Part shown: positions 2,551 to 10,073 of the stretch, in pieces
How the letters are laid out: each line of letters begins with the position of its first letter
Numbering within the stretch: the stretch's first letter is position 1
NCBI RefSeq assembly: GCF_000332335.1
Contig: NZ_KB235948.1
Coordinates: 2,730,440-2,740,512, forward strand
Direction of reading: 5' to 3'
Source of the DNA: Oscillatoria sp. PCC 10802
GTDB lineage: Bacteria; Cyanobacteriota; Cyanobacteriia; Cyanobacteriales; Oscillatoriaceae
Length of the DNA stretch: 10,073 nt
Translations under genes and position numbers: made by a program
The notes under the pieces: generated by a model
What the model was told of the DNA's origin: nothing
The model's database searches: none
The model's input: the letters and a program-made list of their open reading frames with translations, nothing else

Positions 2551-2935
2551 AAAAAGTCCCGCACAGTTATCTGTGCCACCATCGGGTGAGCCGGTTGAGG
2601 ATAGATGGGCGATTGTGCCAAGCTTGATAAAATTCCGGGTAGGGCATAGTTTGGGCGCAGTGCAAGATGAGTTTGTACCACTTCTCGAATCGCTCATATT
2701 TCATTATCTAACTTATCATTTATGCTGCTTTTCTGCGGGTATATTTATCCCGTTCTGACTCGATGACTCGCACTAACGTCTCCATAGCTATTTGATTGCC
2801 GGTGCCACAAACTCCAAGTGCTGCAGCGCCAGCCGCAGGGTATTTTTCTTCATATCCTTGATGCGATCTTTGTCCAGTTCGTTTAGCGCTCGCCGCGATT
2901 CGCAGCGCCAAAAGAAACAAAATACAAAAGAGGCG

Positions 2936-2994
2936 GCTGTTAATTGTTAAGAAAATTTACTGTTATTACAATAAACCTTTAACAATTAACAAGC
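2936..2994 (-). terminator. 15-bp inverted repeat (GCTGTTAATTGTTAA / TTAACAATTAACAAGC) with a 28-nt spacer. On the - strand it is followed by a T-rich tract (CTCTTTTGTATTTTGTTTCTTTT). Candidate terminator of the protease operon, or a palindromic operator.
   Basis: Arms read directly. Lies ~113 nt beyond the protease stop on the - strand. The stem is AT-rich, which weakens the terminator reading. Confidence 0.35.
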
Positions 2995-3106
2995 CACCAC
3001 CTATTAGGCTGGGCGACGCTCACCCTACCTGCAGAATGCTTCTGCGTAAGTCCTGGTCAACTCAGGAATAAAATAGCCCTGCCTTAAAATCAAAGGGGTG
3101 GTTTGC

Positions 3107-4018
3107 CTACCGGGGTATATAATTGACAATTATGTCAGCTTTTAGCCAGCCTCGTCCCAAGTAGTCTACGATTATGCCGCCTATTCTTCTGACTCCCTTT
3201 CCTTGCAAATGGGCGTACACGTCCACACAATTTGGTTGTCCGGCAACAATCTCAATCTTTTCAAAATAGGAATAGCCTCCATCAGAAATCATTAAGGGGG
3301 GTTGCCAATTCACAATCTCGCGGGCTTCTGGAACGCAAAACCTTTGAACGACTTGGCGATTGTCTGTATGATCTACACGCACGTCAAAGCGAAAGGTTCG
3401 CTGTTGCACTGGTGGTGGGGGAGGTGGGGGAAGTGGGGGAGCATCATGAAAACTTTTGAGGTTAGGGAACTCTTCAAAAATAACCTTTGTGGGCACTCCA
3501 TACCCACCTAAATTACTATAAATGTTGCGACTATCACTAATAATGCCGCACACCTTTCCGGTGTTTTCATTTAGCAAGGGTGAACCGCTGAATCCAGGAG
3601 CAGCTTGCCCCTCAGTGAATTTGATCAATTCTGGGTTTCTCCCGCAGACACCTTCACATTTATACGTTGCTGATTCCCCCTTGAAATGACTAATTTCAGT
3701 ATAGCCATAGGTGGAAAAGGAGTCACCGACTTGGAAAGACTCATCCAAAGACACGCAAGGTTGTCTGGGAATACTATTATTTAACCGGATAAGTGCTAAA
3801 TCAACTTTAGCAGTATCTTCCGCTCTTCCCACAACTGTGGCGGGGTATTCTTGATTTTGCCAGTAAACCGTGACCGACTGCTGATCCTTAACCACATGAG
3901 CGCAGGTGAGAATCAGCCCCTCAGCAGCCACAAAAAATCCTGTTCCGCTCTCTGTATTTGCACTTATCCGCACAGTGCATTGTTTCAACTGCTCGCACAG
4001 CTCGTTCAGATCCGTCAT
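3107..4018 (-). CDS. Cytoplasmic trypsin-like serine peptidase (S1/chymotrypsin fold, compact Trypsin_2-like), 303 aa. Carries a poly-proline linker (PPLPPPPPPPV) and an unassigned ~100-aa C-terminal domain.
   Basis: Catalytic triad in canonical order and context: His in GLILTCAHVV, Asp in VDLALIRL, Ser in GFSGSPLL. No signal peptide. ATG start with GAGG about 12 nt upstream. Lies 44 bp downstream of the co-oriented small ORF. Confidence 0.8.
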   Translation of the reverse strand: MTDLNELCEQLKQCTVRISANTESGTGFFVAAEGLILTCAHVVKDQQSVTVYWQNQEYPATVVGRAEDTAKVDLALIRLNNSIPRQPCVSLDESFQVGDSFSTYGYTEISHFKGESATYKCEGVCGRNPELIKFTEGQAAPGFSGSPLLNENTGKVCGIISDSRNIYSNLGGYGVPTKVIFEEFPNLKSFHDAPPLPPPPPPPVQQRTFRFDVRVDHTDNRQVVQRFCVPEAREIVNWQPPLMISDGGYSYFEKIEIVAGQPNCVDVYAHLQGKGVRRIGGIIVDYLGRGWLKADIIVNYIPR

Positions 4019-4061
4019 CCCCTTCTTGCCTCGCTAATAGCCAAAAACTACATGTTGACCT

Positions 4062-4412
4062 TCAGTTGCTTGAAGCATCGCGTGTTGGAATGTCTTCCTT
4101 TGCCCACTCCATAGTAATTTCTAGGTTTCCCTTGCTAGAGCCTTTTACAATCAGTGCTGTTAGCTGTCCCGACTCTAGTGCAACTTCTAACCCTAATTTT
4201 ACACTCGTTTTAGTAGGCTTTACCTGCTGCAAATGGTTGACTATCGCAGCGGCAATCCCCTCAATTGAATTAGTTAAATTATCCAAAGATAAGATTTGAG
4301 ATGAAGAGCTAATCTTCTGAGAGCCACCCAGCATCCTTGCTTCAATGTTTACCTCCTGGCCATTCGGAAGCTTAACTCGAACAATTTCTGTGCGTTCTGC
4401 GCCAGATTGCAT
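4062..4412 (-). CDS. Small soluble protein, 116 aa, co-transcribed immediately upstream of the trypsin-like peptidase. Possible trypsin-co-occurring (Trypco-like) partner, regulator or substrate.
   Basis: ATG start preceded by a strong SD (CTAAGGAGAAGAAATT-ATG). Same strand as the peptidase with a 44-bp gap. Beta-rich pattern SVKLGLEVALESGQLTALIVKGSSKGNLEITMEW. No TM or signal peptide. AT-richer than the flanking genes. Confidence 0.6.
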   Translation of the reverse strand: MQSGAERTEIVRVKLPNGQEVNIEARMLGGSQKISSSSQILSLDNLTNSIEGIAAAIVNHLQQVKPTKTSVKLGLEVALESGQLTALIVKGSSKGNLEITMEWAKEDIPTRDASSN

Positions 4413-5018
4413 AATTTCTTCTCCTTAGAGATTGAGGTATTGTTTTGAATCTGTCCGTGAGCCCCCCACCCAAACCCATCCAGCCGAGCTGGGGAACTCA
4501 TCAGCCTTTTTCCCACCACCCTCACCGCCATCCGGAAACTTTTTACATTTCTTCATCAACGAGCCTCCGAACCCCCCCAGCACCGGCACCCAACTCACTC
4601 CCCTCCCCCGCCCCCAGAATGCCGGCACGCCAGAGCCCCACCGGCTAAGTCGCTGGAGTCTTCAACCGGATGTCTTAAAATATCTGCCTTAGCCCAAATC
4701 GCGTAAACTCTACGCTGAAAGCATTTACGCTGCTAACGCCCGCAAAAGATTGCGTATTTTCCGGCAGAATACATAAGCAAACGCCCCCCACCGGCAGGCT
4801 CGCTCGGCGCACCGGCAGCCGGTGTGTTGCGCCAAGTTGCCGGTGGCTTCCCCAGCACCCAATATAGCGGCAAAGCCGGTGTTGCACAGAGCTGAAGAAC
4901 CCCGTGGGGTTAAATCCTGTTGCTGTAAACGCGACTCCCGACACTATCCCTCTTTATACAACAAGCAAATTAAAAGCGCAACCCCTTGCGATCCCCACCC
5001 CCACCAAACAGCTACAGC

Positions 5019-6383
5019 TTATTCCAGAGAGAGCTCGCAGCTCTCCTCACTAACCGGCACAGCCTCCGGAGCCAGCAAGTTAACTTTCACGTTTTGCCGG
5101 ATAGGAATTTCAATTGCAAACTCCGCTCCCCGCCCGGGCGCTGAAACACAAACAAGCCGCCCGCCGTGTTTTTTCACCACAATCTGGTAGCTAATGGACA
5201 GCCCCAAGCCGGTGCCGCTCCCCACCGGCTTAGTCGTAAAAAACGGGTCAAATATTCTATGAAGCACATCTTCACTCATGCCCGGCCCATTGTCAATAAT
5301 CCGGATTCTCACGCAGTCAAAGGAAGACACTTCAGTGCGAATCCGAATGCAGGGAAAAAACCCTGACTTGTCACGAGAGGAACCATCACCCCCCACTTGC
5401 GAATTCCCACACCCCATCCCTTCTTCAAGGGCATCAATCGCATTCGTAAGAATATGCATAAACACTTGGTTTAGCTCGCCGGCGTAGCAGGTAACTTCTG
5501 GAACATCCCCGTACTCTTTAACCACTTCGATATCAGCCAGACGCCCGTCTTTTTTGAACCGGTGCTGCAAAAATAGCAGCGTGCTGTCAATGCATTCGTG
5601 AATGTTCACCGGCTTGATATCCGATTCATTCAGCCGGGAAAAAGTCCGCAAACTCAACACCATATTGCGGATGCGATCGGCTCCCACTTTCATCGAATCC
5701 AGAATTTTTTGCACATCCTCAACCATAAATTCCAGGTCGATGCTCTCAGTAGCCGCTTTAATCTCCGGTGCCGGATTGGGGTAAGTTTTTTGGTAGAGGT
5801 CGAGCAGATTGAGCAATTCTTGAATATAGCTATTGATCGGGAACAGATTCCCGTAAATAAAGCTGATGGGGTTGTTAATTTCGTGGGCGACACCCGCCAC
5901 TATCTGCCCCAAGCTGGACATTTTAGCCGCCTGAATCACTTGCGCTTGGGTGGCGCGAAGTTCCGAGAGCGTTTGTTCCAGCGTTTTTGTCAGAGTGCGC
6001 ATTTTGACGTGCGCATTGATGCGAGCCAAAACCTCCTCTTGCTGGAATGGCTTGGTAATGTAATCCACTGCGCCCATAGAAAACCCCTTCACCTTATCCA
6101 CCGTCTCAGAAAGAGCCGTCATAAAAATCACGGGGATGTCTTTCGTTGCCTCATTTGCCTTCAGCCGCCGGCAAGTTTCAAACCCGTCGATTCCGGGCAT
6201 CATCACATCCAGCAAAATCAGAGCCGGCGGGTCGTATTGCACCTTGCGGATAGCACTTTCTCCATCTCGCGCTACCCGCACACCAAACCCAGCTTGATTC
6301 AAAACCGCAGAGAGCAAACTCAAATTGGCCGGGGTGTCATCGACGATTAAGATAGCAGCTATATCACCCTTTTTATCGTTCAT
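5019..6383 (-). CDS. Hybrid two-component protein: N-terminal receiver (REC) domain fused to a histidine kinase (HisKA + HATPase_c). 454 aa from the ATG at 6383, or 473 aa if the TTG at 6440 is used.
   Basis: REC acidic pocket (LIVDD ... LILLDVMMPGIDG ... K in DYITKPF). H-box AHEINNPISF. N/G boxes IIDNGPGM and GTGLGLSIS. The ORF-track start at 6440 is a TTG. An in-frame ATG (MNDKKGD...) at 6383 gives a canonical receiver N-terminus. Confidence 0.85.
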   Translation of the reverse strand: MNDKKGDIAAILIVDDTPANLSLLSAVLNQAGFGVRVARDGESAIRKVQYDPPALILLDVMMPGIDGFETCRRLKANEATKDIPVIFMTALSETVDKVKGFSMGAVDYITKPFQQEEVLARINAHVKMRTLTKTLEQTLSELRATQAQVIQAAKMSSLGQIVAGVAHEINNPISFIYGNLFPINSYIQELLNLLDLYQKTYPNPAPEIKAATESIDLEFMVEDVQKILDSMKVGADRIRNMVLSLRTFSRLNESDIKPVNIHECIDSTLLFLQHRFKKDGRLADIEVVKEYGDVPEVTCYAGELNQVFMHILTNAIDALEEGMGCGNSQVGGDGSSRDKSGFFPCIRIRTEVSSFDCVRIRIIDNGPGMSEDVLHRIFDPFFTTKPVGSGTGLGLSISYQIVVKKHGGRLVCVSAPGRGAEFAIEIPIRQNVKVNLLAPEAVPVSEESCELSLE

Positions 6384-6642
6384 AGTTATTTTTTTATCGC
6401 TGTTTTTTATTTGAGAAAACGGCTGAGCGAAAGACAACAAAGGAGGGGACGAAGTGAGCCGGCGGGTTGAGGGCTCGAAGTAAGTCTGCCTAGCAAACGC
6501 AGAACCTGCGACCTATTTTACCACCAGTCGTCCCAAGATTTGCCACTTGCTGCCGGTGAGCCCAACAATCTTTCCCAAAACTCCCACTGCAGCCATTTCC
6601 GCCCCCTGCCGGCGCTACATCGCTCCGTGCCGGTGCCGGTGC

Positions 6643-6660
6643 GGGTGTCTTCTGGGAACC
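6643..6660. repeat. Mini-repeat copy R2: GGGTGTCTTCTGGGAACC.
   Basis: 17/18 identity with 7467-7483. Shares TTCTGGGAACC with 699-709. Confidence 0.5.
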
Positions 6661-7004
6661 GAATTGTGTGCCGGTTTGACTGTTCATAGTTCATTCAACC
6701 CCCTCAATCCAGATTGCGGGCCCACTCCCCAATGCGAGCCTGAGCCATTTTAATTTATCCTAATGAATTTTTCACCTCTACCCCTTCAATCTTGATTAAG
6801 ATTTATCCGCAATCCCTGATATTATACCCTCACTTCTCACTTAAACCCGATCCCCCGGTACAATCCAGGAATTCTCCCCCGCTTCCCATCCGTTCTATCC
6901 GTTAAATCCCTGATATCCTGTCGTTGAACTGCCGCAATCTGAAACCAAAGCCCAAAGCCCCACGCCCAATGCCCGACCCTCAAGATATTACCGGCATTCA
7001 ACCT

Positions 7005-7020
7005 GATATAATATTATATC
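7005..7020. promoter_or_regulatory. Perfect 16-bp palindrome GATATAATATTATATC, 55-70 bp downstream of the nnr stop. It contains TGATATAAT, an extended -10 that reads identically on both strands.
   Basis: Reverse complement equals itself, checked base by base. Confidence 0.4.
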
Positions 7021-7074
7021 CCTCATTCCTAGCCTTTATATCGCCCCTTAGATAGAGGAACAAAATTGAACCTA

Positions 7075-8661
7075 TTACTTCGCGTAGTTGCGCAGCACCG
7101 GCACTAAATACTGCGCCAGCGTAAACGCATCGACCCCCAGCTGACTCCGCTCCTGCGCCGCCAGAATGCCGGCGCTCGCGTGCCACCACACCGCTAGTTT
7201 GCATGAGTCTTCAACCGGCTTTTCCGCAACAGCCGCCTGCGCCCACAAGCCCCCCATCAGCCCCGTAAGCACATCCCCGCTGCCGCCGCGAGCCAAAGCC
7301 GGCGTACTTTCCGGCTGCACCCACACCGTACCGTCCGGATGCGCCACTGCCGTTCGCGCCCCCTTCAGCAGCACGACAGCCCCAGTTTGCATCGCCGCCG
7401 CCCGCACAGCAGCAATTCTGCCTCCGTATCTCCCCTCTCCCTCAATGGGAGAGGGGTTGGGGGTGAGGGTGTCTTCTGGAAACAAACGCTTGAACTCACC
7501 GAGATGGGGCGTCAGCACTGCCGGCGCTCGCCGCTCAGTCAGTGTTGCAATCGCCCCCAGATGCGCCAGCACATTCAGCCCGTCCGCATCCAAAACCAGA
7601 GGGGGAGAGCTCTCCAGCACCGCCTCCACCACCGGCGCAGCCCCCACCGTCAGCCCCGGACCGCACGCGATCGCACTGTAAGAATTCAAATCGGCACCTG
7701 GCGGCAGACCTGCGATCGCCCCCGCCTCCGTTTCCGGACACCCGACAATCAGCGCCTCTGGCAGCTGCAAACTCAGCAGCGGCTTAACCGACTCCGGAAC
7801 CGCCACCGAGAGCATCCCCACCCCAGACGCCCGCGCCCCCAAACCCGCCAAAATTGCCGCGCCGGTGTACTTGCGCGAACCGCAAACCAGCAGCAAGTGC
7901 CCCATCTTGTACTTGTGCGACGCCGGCGGGCGGGGGATGGGGAGGTGCGACAGCGCGACTGCCGGTGTGATGCGCCGGATTGCCGGTGGCTCGCCGAGTA
8001 CCGCCCGGATATCCGCCAGCGGCAAATCAAAATCAACCAGCTCCGCCTCACCAATATACTCTAGCGCCCCATCTTGCAGGAACGCCAGCTTCCACAGCCC
8101 CAAGCAAAACGTCCGCGCCGCCCGAATCGCAGTGCCCAAAACCTCGCCGGTATCCGTGTGCAGCCCCGAAGGAATATCCACACTCAGCACCGGCACCCCC
8201 CAGCGATTCACCTCATCGATCGCCGCCGCAACCGCACCGTCGAGCGAACGCTCCAACCCAAAGCCAAACAGCCCGTCAACCAGCAAGTCACACCCTTGCA
8301 GCGGCTCAACTTCCTGATAGAACGGAATTCCCAGACTCGCCACATACCGGGCGTGCTGTCCCGTCAGTTCCTTAAGCTTAGAAAACGGCGAATACACCGC
8401 CACCTCAAAACCCCGCCAGTGCAGCTCCCTAGCCACAACCAAAGCGTCCCCCCCATTGTGCCCCGGACCAACCAGCACACCGGCACGCACCGGCTGCCGG
8501 TATAGCTCCTGAATCCGCTTCGCAACCAGTCCCGCCACCTTTTCCATCAGCGCCGGCACCGGCATTCCCGCCTCAAACACGCGCCCCTCAATCGCACGCA
8601 TTTGCTCAGCCGTCACAGCAAACTGGTGAATCTGCTCAACCCTGTCCTGAATTCGCCCCAC
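7075..8661 (-). CDS. nnr: Bifunctional NAD(P)H-hydrate repair enzyme Nnr, 528 aa, GTG start. N-terminal NAD(P)H-hydrate epimerase (YjeF_N) fused to C-terminal ADP-dependent (S)-NAD(P)H-hydrate dehydratase (YjeF_C, carbohydrate-kinase fold).
   Basis: N-terminal VTAEQMRAIEG ... LVGPGHNGGDALVVAREL. C-terminal GGSGDVLTGL. An upstream in-frame stop at 8686-8688 rules out a longer N-terminus. Confidence 0.9.
   Translation of the reverse strand: MGRIQDRVEQIHQFAVTAEQMRAIEGRVFEAGMPVPALMEKVAGLVAKRIQELYRQPVRAGVLVGPGHNGGDALVVARELHWRGFEVAVYSPFSKLKELTGQHARYVASLGIPFYQEVEPLQGCDLLVDGLFGFGLERSLDGAVAAAIDEVNRWGVPVLSVDIPSGLHTDTGEVLGTAIRAARTFCLGLWKLAFLQDGALEYIGEAELVDFDLPLADIRAVLGEPPAIRRITPAVALSHLPIPRPPASHKYKMGHLLLVCGSRKYTGAAILAGLGARASGVGMLSVAVPESVKPLLSLQLPEALIVGCPETEAGAIAGLPPGADLNSYSAIACGPGLTVGAAPVVEAVLESSPPLVLDADGLNVLAHLGAIATLTERRAPAVLTPHLGEFKRLFPEDTLTPNPSPIEGEGRYGGRIAAVRAAAMQTGAVVLLKGARTAVAHPDGTVWVQPESTPALARGGSGDVLTGLMGGLWAQAAVAEKPVEDSCKLAVWWHASAGILAAQERSQLGVDAFTLAQYLVPVLRNYAK
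7426..7484. repeat. Mini-repeat copy R3 inside the nnr coding sequence: TCCCCTCTCCC-TCAAT-GGGAGAGGGGA, then TTGGGGGTGAGGGTG, then TCTTCTGGAAAC. On the - strand it encodes the in-frame peptide FPEDTLTPNPSPIEGEGRYGG.
   Basis: The reverse complement matches R1 (CACCCCCAACCCCTC plus hairpin). It shares a 17-mer with R2. The translation was verified codon by codon. Confidence 0.6.
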
Positions 8662-9867: not shown

Positions 9868-10073
9868 GGGGAGCATCCCGGTTGTGGGAAGAAGTCCATA
9901 TCAATGCGACAGTGATTTCAGCAGGGGGTAGGAGGAGAAGATTTTTGGCCAGCTGAATCCCGGCAACGGGATTGAAACACTATACCGAACGGGAGCATCC
10001 CCGTTGTGCAAAGAAGCCCAAATGAATGCGACAATGATTTCAGCAGGGGGTAGGAGCGGATGATTTTTGGCCA
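9868..10073. repeat. Two 84-bp direct repeats (9868-9951 and 9990-10073, ~88% identity, period 122 bp). They are separated by a 38-bp spacer holding a perfect 7-bp hairpin with a GNRA loop (AATCCCG-GCAA-CGGGATT, 9956-9973). The array runs to the window end.
   Basis: Aligned by eye: GGGAGCATCCC(C/G)GTTGTG..AAGAAG.CCA.AT.AATGCGACA.TGATTTCAGCAGGGGGTAGGAG.....GATTTTTGGCCA. Confidence 0.8.

Follow-up and report, generated by a model that had tools for sequence, protein, structure and literature searches.

An NTPase-free Trypco1–trypsin cassette with an undescribed C-terminal domain at a variable locus of Oscillatoria sp. PCC 10802

The stretch of 10,073 nucleotides analysed here (hereafter the window; contig NZ_KB235948.1 of Oscillatoria sp. 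PCC 10802, positions 2,730,440 to 2,740,512) carries on its minus strand a two-gene cassette encoding a 116-aa protein and a 303-aa trypsin-like serine protease that ends in a C-terminal domain (CTD) of an undescribed family. The cassette is very probably a Trypco1–trypsin conflict module, a kind already known from Pfam, NCBIfam and two papers. What stands out in the window version is the complete absence of an NTPase. The locus itself is a variable, swappable island, at which the CTD is kept while its partners are exchanged. The original prediction, made from the letters of the sequence alone, had placed both open reading frames (ORFs) of the cassette correctly and had considered it not assignable to a named system; it can be assigned to the described Trypco/Pepco–protease modules.

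Results

A conserved Trypco1–trypsin pair without an NTPase

By the definition of Kaur, Burroughs, Iyer & Aravind (2020, PMC7159879), Trypco1 and Trypco2 are small, mutually exclusive proteins whose genes adjoin those of trypsin-like peptidases, in conflict systems that centre on NTPases and occur in multicellular bacteria; Evans et al. 2025 (10.1101/2025.11.14.688446) renamed them 'Pepco'. The 116-aa protein (WP_017716948.1), encoded at 4062..4412 on the minus strand with its ATG at 4412, matches Pfam Trypco1 (PF19493) with 54 bits (cut-off 24.6; E 2.7e-14; profile positions 3–97 of 98) and NCBIfam CU044_2847 (NF041216) with 59.8 bits (cut-off 23; E 3.2e-16). Judged by these profile matches it is a genuine member of the Trypco1/CU044_2847 family, in line with the neighbourhood logic of Trypco1 and Trypco2 that the original prediction had invoked. 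In RefSeq (Kamptonema formosum / Oscillatoria sp. PCC 10802) an exact-sequence look-up finds it annotated as a CU044_2847 family protein, and the protease, WP_017716947.1, as an S1 family peptidase. The protease gene, an exact RefSeq match, lies at 3107..4018 on the same strand (ATG at 4018), and the gap between the two co-oriented genes is 43 nt (4019–4061), one less than first reported. The strong Shine–Dalgarno sequence ascribed to the small gene is a canonical AAGGAG (4421..4426, minus strand) read 8 nt upstream of its ATG.

The pairing is conserved, since Trypco1 is directly followed by a homologue of the window trypsin domain in 21 of the 22 related loci that have a downstream ORF (E 1e-21 to 1e-57); the neighbourhood check proposed with the original prediction thus came out in its favour. 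In these loci the protease extends 50 to more than 1100 residues past the trypsin domain, with NTPase plus TPR, multi-transmembrane (multi-TM) or WD40 regions visible. One Trypco1-linked protease is fused to a STAND NTPase (locus L014), and in two Nostoc loci (L015/L016) Trypco1 and then a 248-aa protease precede a separate 842-aa NACHT gene. Neither a STAND/NACHT NTPase nor the combination of MoxR ATPase, vWA and VMAP occurs in the 303-aa protein, in the window or in the L001 gene table. The host is a multicellular, filamentous cyanobacterium, which counts in favour of a conflict module because NTPase-centred conflict systems are enriched in multicellular bacteria (PMC7159879).

The Trypco1 protein and its candidate cleavage sites

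Alignment A4 comprises 17 complete Trypco1 homologues, drawn from 23 metagenomic loci, three loci reached via protease homologues, and the close allele of loci L007/L008. That allele excepted, the homologues are 35–57% identical to the window protein. Residues E24, K68, G82, L84, T85, L87, V89, G91 and W103 are invariant, and the near-fixed block reads ESGQLTALIVKG...NL[EK]IT[LM]EW. The predicted order of elements is a beta-hairpin (~7–28), a variable linker (29–43), an amphipathic helix (~44–63), three amphipathic strands (68–103) and a 13-aa charged tail, as given by a low-confidence single-sequence AlphaFold2 (AF2) model (pLDDT 41) together with hydrophobic moments. Strands 18–28, 68–79 and 89–103 alternate polar and hydrophobic residues, with moments of 0.63–0.82. 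The IMG/VR scan returned no relatives of Trypco1, and PHROGs gave nothing meaningful for it.

The only Pepco with experimental work behind it is SsPepco of Streptomyces subrutilus, which forms SDS-stable 9–10-mer beta-barrels. It is cut after I97 (I97|R98) by the neighbouring Avs4-fused trypsin protease, and the product ending at I97 kills Escherichia coli in a manner that requires the amphipathic helix; the S-to-A protease mutant and the cleavage-site and helix mutants each abolish toxicity (10.1101/2025.11.14.688446). On the low-confidence secondary structure, helix 42–65 of the window protein has a hydrophobic moment of 0.41, against 0.42 for the helix of SsPepco. In most Trypco1 homologues the chain ends 2–3 residues past W103, whereas the window protein continues for 13 residues (AKEDIPTRDASSN). 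Counted from I99, it has 17 further residues, 35% of them charged, as against only 6–7 in most homologues.

The alignment and the comparison with SsPepco suggest I34 and I99 as candidate P1 residues for cleavage. The I34–S35 codons (4308..4313, minus strand) fall in the variable linker, where the A4 column counts give [VI]-[SAG] at positions 34–35 in 16 of 17 homologues, preceded by G30-E-Q. The alternative is I99–T100 (codons 4113..4118, minus strand) in the C-terminal strand N-L-[EK]-I-T-[LM]-E-W, proposed by positional analogy to I97|R98 of SsPepco; position 99 is isoleucine in 14 of the 17 sequences and leucine in the other 3. Amino-acid differences between the window and L007 proteins are concentrated at residues 31–45.

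The protease domain and its linker

The cytoplasmic trypsin-like domain (PA clan, Trypsin_2) occupies residues 1–190 (3449..4018, minus strand; Pfam PF13365 E 1.4e-19), with residues 25–159 scoring 71.7 bits (cut-off 27.6). The intact H/D/S triad described earlier lies in the motifs TCAH41VV, VD73LAL and GFS144GSP (minus-strand codons 3896–3898, 3800–3802 and 3587–3589), and all three residues are kept in the relatives P0001 and P0002. An export signal had likewise been correctly excluded: the protein lacks both a signal peptide and a TM segment, its N-terminus is non-hydrophobic, and the highest 19-residue Kyte–Doolittle mean, 1.52, falls in a core strand of the trypsin fold. A poly-proline spacer, PPLPPPPPPP (residues 194–203; 3410..3439, minus strand), leads from the protease domain to the CTD.

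Full-length relatives in the homologue search are limited to P0001 (91% identical) and P0002 (87%). The remaining homologues align over the protease domain only, at ~40–56% identity, and carry STAND/NACHT NTPases (PF13401, PF20703, PF05729), TIR, GUN4, kinase or unknown regions in their C-terminal parts. Among them are the Trypco1-linked trypsin-STAND proteases P0004, P0011 and P0038, which are 44–56% identical to the window trypsin domain. Matches to the Avs1b and LmuA models are confined to the protease domain.

A rare beta-sandwich domain that recurs with trypsin domains

The C-terminal domain, already called unassigned in the original prediction, spans residues 204–303 (3110..3409, minus strand) and matches no Pfam, NCBIfam, PADLOC or PHROG model. 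Of the 35 hits of a phmmer search run exhaustively over 1.84 billion representatives, 29 are credible. The giant repeat proteins P0125, P0129, P0140 and P0146–P0148 were rejected as relatives, as their repeats have i-E values of 0.001–8 and reach significance only by summing. About half of the 29 have an apparent signal peptide (a hydrophobic N-terminus) followed by Trypsin_2 and the CTD, at ~330–370 aa; the others are signal/TM plus CTD proteins or stand-alone proteins of 100–107 aa. In the secreted group the trypsin domains share only ~25–30% identity with that of the window, as does the trypsin linked to EAD8 in locus L003 (see below), and the CTD has therefore been joined to at least three trypsin lineages.

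The family is marked by the motifs F.F..VDHEE, FC.P, PNC, G.GV..[IV]G and GRGWL, which appear in the window as F.F..VDH.., FC228.P, PNC264, G.GV..IG and GRGWL. Its cysteine pair (C228 and C264 in the window) is present in secreted and TM-anchored members and lost in the stand-alone ones. An AF2 model built on a 26-sequence alignment is a nine-strand, all-beta sandwich (pLDDT 95.6, pTM 0.82). Structure searches gave generic beta-sandwich or jelly-roll resemblance only, including a weak similarity to lectin folds, with a best Foldseek E of 0.24 against the PDB and of 2.5e-3 against BFVD (TM 0.38); the best E of the profile against PDB sequences was 0.82, and no significant sequence or structure match to described lectin, jelly-roll or Ig-like families emerged. 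A word-index search with a sparse index gave no candidates for the CTD alone and two proteins with the A2 alignment, and the IMG/VR scan returned no CTD relatives. Across 185,579 species genomes the CTD patterns, which would miss the secreted subfamily, found one locus only (P0127). The domain is shown by these results to be well folded, rare, conserved and recurrent with trypsin domains.

Some remote homologues have contexts of their own. P0137 (L010 2435–2737) is a stand-alone CTD without the cysteine pair, encoded between two NACHT NTPase genes. P0127 (L009 8001–8318, from a Synechococcaceae metagenome-assembled genome), also stand-alone and without the pair, lies amid WYL, Uma2, UmuD/UmuC and ParM-like genes and unannotated ORFs. 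The secreted trypsin-CTD protein P0132 (L041 284–2157) is directly preceded by a Peptidase_C92 (PF05708) gene, a distinct two-peptidase pairing, and P0121 and P0138 are surrounded by unannotated genes; the contexts of P0121, P0138 and P0132 gave no functional lead.

The CTD is retained while its partners are exchanged

Haplotypes were compared by blastn of the window against the loci carrying P0003 (L003/L004) and P0002 (L007/L008), together with gene tables. The window haplotype runs YjeF, histidine kinase, the cassette (Trypco1, then trypsin-polyPro-CTD) and type-2 NADH dehydrogenase (NDH-2). In L003/L004 the flanks are 88–97% identical to the window, and window 3432..4599, a segment without strand that holds the Trypco1 gene and the trypsin-domain codons, is exchanged for 3.5 kb. 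Homology with L003 resumes at window 3431, within the proline-linker codons. The same chromosomal site thus carries a different cassette in a sister haplotype, and the pair is not the ubiquitous syntenic housekeeping that would have spoken against the original prediction.

By gene tables and Pfam matches of the L003 proteins, the L003/L004 cassette (L003 7306–10822) encodes an LCAT-like α/β-hydrolase (346 aa), a 58-aa ORF without a family, an EAD8-trypsin protein (359 aa) and P0003 (273 aa). P0003 consists of EAD8, a strongly hydrophobic segment (GIFIFPLSILAGLIFFAFL, Kyte–Doolittle 2.5), a proline-rich linker and a CTD 95% identical to that of the window; the two EAD8 copies of L003 are only 24% identical. 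Effector-associated domains (EADs) are proposed to act as homotypic adaptors, tethering effectors to the core components, and the L003/L004 cassette is apparently an NTPase-free, EAD8-coupled system. In one studied case an α/β-hydrolase beside a protease is a protease-activated zymogen (10.1101/2025.11.14.688446). BLASTP of the L003 hydrolase against that LcHydrolase aligned the nucleophile elbow only (E 0.06), and PADLOC gave nothing for P0003 or the L003 hydrolase. As far as the sequences indicate, both wirings would link one CTD to a trypsin protease beside a candidate latent effector, covalently in the window and via EAD8 in L003/L004.

Because the CTD is kept while effector and protease are both exchanged, it fits an input, regulatory or localisation module, and a role as a Trypco1-specific binding domain is unlikely. 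If the EAD8 of P0003 is cytoplasmic, the TM helix would place its CTD outside the cytoplasm, which fits the conserved cysteine pair.

Loci L007/L008 share with the window a block at 2575..4670 (no strand; blastn) that is 94% identical and there directly follows YjeF, without the histidine-kinase gene. A 58-nt direct repeat (4580–4637 / 7127–7184, 76% identical) brackets the response-regulator/histidine-kinase gene, its second copy lying inside the 3' coding end of YjeF. Exactly the stretch between these repeats (window 4671–7095) is missing from L007/L008, and the kinase gene therefore looks like a repeat-mediated indel. In the convergent NDH-2/protease intergenic region, a 211-nt segment (2633–2843) without an ORF or Rfam match is missing in L003/L004 and present in L007/L008. 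At L007 7696–9267, YjeF is called as two ORFs (399 + 107 aa) instead of one of ~526 aa, which suggests a frameshift or an assembly error.

Substitution patterns differ between cassette and flanks

Between the window and L007, Trypco1 shows 16 nonsynonymous and 4 synonymous differences and the trypsin domain 36 and 6, with ratios of nonsynonymous to synonymous substitution rates (dN/dS) of 1.24 and 1.73, each at a synonymous rate (dS) of ~0.05; the CTD shows 2 and 0 (dS 0). For the flanks, measured between the window and L003, dN/dS is 0.24 for YjeF (dS 0.23; for the window against L008 the YjeF value is unchanged), 0.33 for the histidine kinase (dS 0.19) and 0.15 for NDH-2 (dS 0.07). Trypco1 and the trypsin domain together (52:10) differ from YjeF (Fisher p = 2e-8), and the CTD is much less substituted than the trypsin domain (p = 2e-6). 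A dS in the cassette below that of the adjacent YjeF suggests recent exchange between lineages. The high dN/dS of the cassette points either to diversifying selection of the sort usually seen in immune genes or to relaxed constraint, and the overall pattern is typical of exchanged, fast-evolving immune loci.

Neighbouring genes and repeats

The other genes of the 10 kb window encode NDH-2 (WP_017716946) and the response-regulator/histidine-kinase hybrid (WP_017716949), which flank the cassette in RefSeq, YjeF (NAD(P)HX repair) and a SPOR-like protein. The gene table lists no NTPase, caspase or nuclease, so the housekeeping neighbourhood reported in the original prediction is borne out. Rfam and tRNA scans of the window found no match, and a promoter and terminator scan around the cassette gave no signal beyond shuffled expectation. 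A tandem array at 1–130 repeats the 26-nt unit GGGCTTCAGCCCAAAAGTTCGTAGTT ~4.5 times at 98–100% identity, the last copy being degenerate. The ORF-poor first kilobase also holds a 48-nt inverted repeat (355–402 / 587–634; 88% complementary, 184 nt apart) and a 51-nt direct repeat (410–460 / 797–847; 90%), both resembling miniature inverted-repeat transposable elements. At the right end, upstream of the SPOR-like gene, lies an 83-nt direct repeat (9869–9951 / 9991–10073; 88% identical).

Discussion

On balance we consider it somewhat probable that the cassette is a minimal, NTPase-free Trypco/Pepco–protease conflict module, serving programmed cell death or anti-phage defence, in which a CTD-gated protease processes Trypco1 into a membrane-damaging oligomer. 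In this scheme Trypco1 would be produced as a harmless pro-form, and the protease (H41/D73/S144) would stay inactive until the CTD, held at the end of a stiff poly-proline spacer, received an input through ligand binding or induced clustering. A single cut in Trypco1, either in the linker (after I34) or in the last strand (after I99), would then yield an oligomer that damages the membrane, and the cell would be killed or arrested. We infer the cleavage of Trypco1, the sensor or regulatory role of the CTD and the nature of the trigger; pore formation by Trypco1 would follow by analogy, having been demonstrated for Trypco2 only. Among the roles that the original prediction offered for the small partner (inhibitor, activator or cleavable substrate), the last is the one backed by published experiments, although these concern the sister family Trypco2.

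Several observations weigh against this scheme. The SsPepco sequence given in the supplement of Evans et al. is itself a Pfam Trypco2 (PF19631, E 5e-18), in keeping with the 'Trypco2 beta-barrel' wording of the supplementary legends (10.1101/2025.11.14.688446), and hhalign of the 17-sequence Trypco1 profile against it found no similarity (probability 0.3); the mechanism is therefore transferred by analogy and not by demonstrated homology. The ~20-aa tail removed from SsPepco is missing in most Trypco1 proteins, so that the activation step is not transferable. By BLASTP the window protease aligns with the SsAvs4 protease at the His motif only. The cassette has no NTPase or other recognised sensor, PADLOC, where a cross-reference had been anticipated, has no model matching the small protein, and the structure of Trypco1 is modelled with low AF2 confidence. 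The dN/dS of the cassette is indistinguishable from neutrality or neutral decay (p = 0.27). Finally, with its cysteine pair kept and a TM helix preceding its counterpart in P0003, the cytoplasmic CTD of the window may be misplaced.

A broader version would have the CTD act as a new, portable input domain, by sensing or clustering, that drives an NTPase-free death module, with Trypco1 activated in a way unlike Trypco2; we hold this joint reading to be tentative and rather doubtful. It would imply two wirings of the CTD, one cytoplasmic and fused to the protease, the other displayed outside the membrane and coupled back via EAD8–EAD8 contacts. Activation of Trypco1 may consist in removal of its N-terminal beta-hairpin at the G-E-Q-x-[VI]|[SAG] linker, which may leave a helix-plus-three-strand core ordered as in Trypco2. 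That the module serves developmental cell death, in necridia formation and trichome fragmentation of Oscillatoriales, and not phage defence, is a still more distant possibility.

The proposed processing of Trypco1 has to be weighed against a scheme that makes the protease the effector, which once activated would degrade proteins of the host or of phages, and that makes Trypco1 no cleaved toxin but an adaptor, inhibitor or scaffold regulating the protease. In the account of Kaur et al. trypsin domains serve as signalling or effector peptidases, and no function is assigned to Trypco1 and Trypco2 (PMC7159879), a paper on diversity-generating retroelements calls Trypco1 an 'adapter domain', and the lack of both detectable similarity to the tested Trypco2 and, usually, the removable C-terminal tail speaks for the same view. 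We nevertheless regard it as unlikely. Evans et al. place Trypco1 with Trypco2 as Pepco, and for Pepco deletion abolishes toxicity while the truncated protein alone kills; the helix and amphipathic strands of Trypco1 are as expected of a membrane-active oligomer; and the protease of the sister haplotype stands beside an α/β-hydrolase, another class shown to act as a protease-activated zymogen effector. A similar balance applies, at a slightly lower probability, to a decaying or non-functional recent recombinant, in which a cytoplasmic, Trypco1-linked protease, its STAND sensor already lost, acquired a periplasm-adapted CTD by way of the proline linker. The break with the L003 haplotype falls exactly within the codons of the proline linker, the cysteine pair of the CTD is typical of secreted or TM-anchored relatives and in P0003 a TM helix precedes it, the dN/dS of 1.2–1.7 in Trypco1 and the trypsin domain is compatible with neutrality, and only three alleles of the trypsin-polyPro-CTD architecture were found. 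Those three (the window, P0001 and P0002, 87–91% identical) nonetheless all have intact ORFs and the H/D/S triad, their sole length difference being an in-frame 2-aa indel. Both alleles with known flanks have an intact 116-aa Trypco1 gene in front at unchanged spacing, all invariant Trypco1 residues are kept, and the architecture occurs in at least two genomic backgrounds, the kinase gene being present in one and absent from another.

Very improbable, by comparison, is a housekeeping role in which an HtrA/DegP-like protease with a PDZ-like CTD serves quality control, partnered by a small chaperone or substrate. A PA-clan trypsin fold with a small, beta-rich regulatory domain behind it does recall the outline of protease-PDZ proteins, the neighbours are housekeeping genes, and HtrA/DegP/DegS models give weak partial matches over the catalytic core. 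These matches, however, reach only ~44 bits against curated cut-offs of 416–450, the protein is cytoplasmic, with no signal peptide or TM segment, and its beta-sandwich CTD, lacking any Pfam hit, is not a PDZ domain. Nor is the site a conserved housekeeping locus, given the other cassettes found there in sister haplotypes; the family is extremely rare by the CTD-pattern search, and the nearest relatives of the protease are fused to STAND NTPases, TIR and GUN4 domains.

Set beside the systems of Kaur et al., in which Trypco1–trypsin pairs belong to VMAP/MoxR-vWA ternary or STAND systems, the window cassette shares the Trypco1 family, its position directly upstream of a signal-less Trypsin_2 peptidase, a filamentous cyanobacterial host and a protease domain 44–56% identical to Trypco1-linked trypsin-STAND proteins. 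It differs in having no MoxR, vWA, VMAP, STAND or NACHT in the protein or within 10 kb, and in carrying a 100-aa beta-sandwich of an undescribed family instead. With SsPepco–SsAvs4 it has in common the gene of a small protein of ~117 aa directly ahead of that of a trypsin-like protease, an amphipathic helix with amphipathic strands (here as predicted by the low-confidence model) and a conserved isoleucine near the C-terminus, I99 in the window. In contrast, Trypco1 has a predicted extra N-terminal beta-hairpin, most Trypco1 proteins have no C-terminal tail, the proteases are alike at the motif level only, and the sensor is a STAND ATPase in Avs4 and would be the 100-aa CTD here.

The L003/L004 module, with its EAD coupling and its protease–α/β-hydrolase pair (kinds of system treated in Kaur 2020 and Evans 2025), shares with the window the chromosomal site, the CTD and a trypsin protease beside a candidate zymogen effector. 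It carries EAD8 on the protease as well as on the CTD protein, in agreement with the published homotypic-adaptor rule, whereas the CTD of the window is fused directly to the protease without an EAD or TM helix, and Trypco1 takes the place of the LCAT-like hydrolase. Bacterial gasdermin–protease and CARD-protease systems offer a more distant parallel, in that a neighbouring protease strips an inhibitory piece from a small pore-former, as is proposed here by analogy; the small protein of the window has neither the gasdermin fold nor gasdermin sequence, and no PADLOC hit.

In bacterial immunity, death effectors activated by proteases are coming to be seen as a main design, parallel to the caspase/gasdermin logic of animals. 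To our knowledge, nearly all of those studied depend on large STAND or other NTPase sensors. The literature we examined does not describe the CTD family, the trypsin-polyPro-CTD architecture free of any NTPase, the exchange in situ of fused and EAD8-tethered wirings, or the predominance of Trypco1 proteins without the tail whose removal activates the studied Trypco2, and the literature searched contained no experiment on a Trypco1 protein.

At 116 + 303 aa the cassette is about as small as such systems get, which makes it a tractable test bed, and the same chromosomal site supplies a natural domain-swap control. The Pepco mechanism has been established on Trypco2, whose cleaved tail is absent from most proteins of Trypco1, the family present here and in many other cyanobacteria; the activation step of Trypco1 may therefore differ and is directly testable. 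The cassette further points to an undescribed domain that repeatedly partners trypsin-like proteases.

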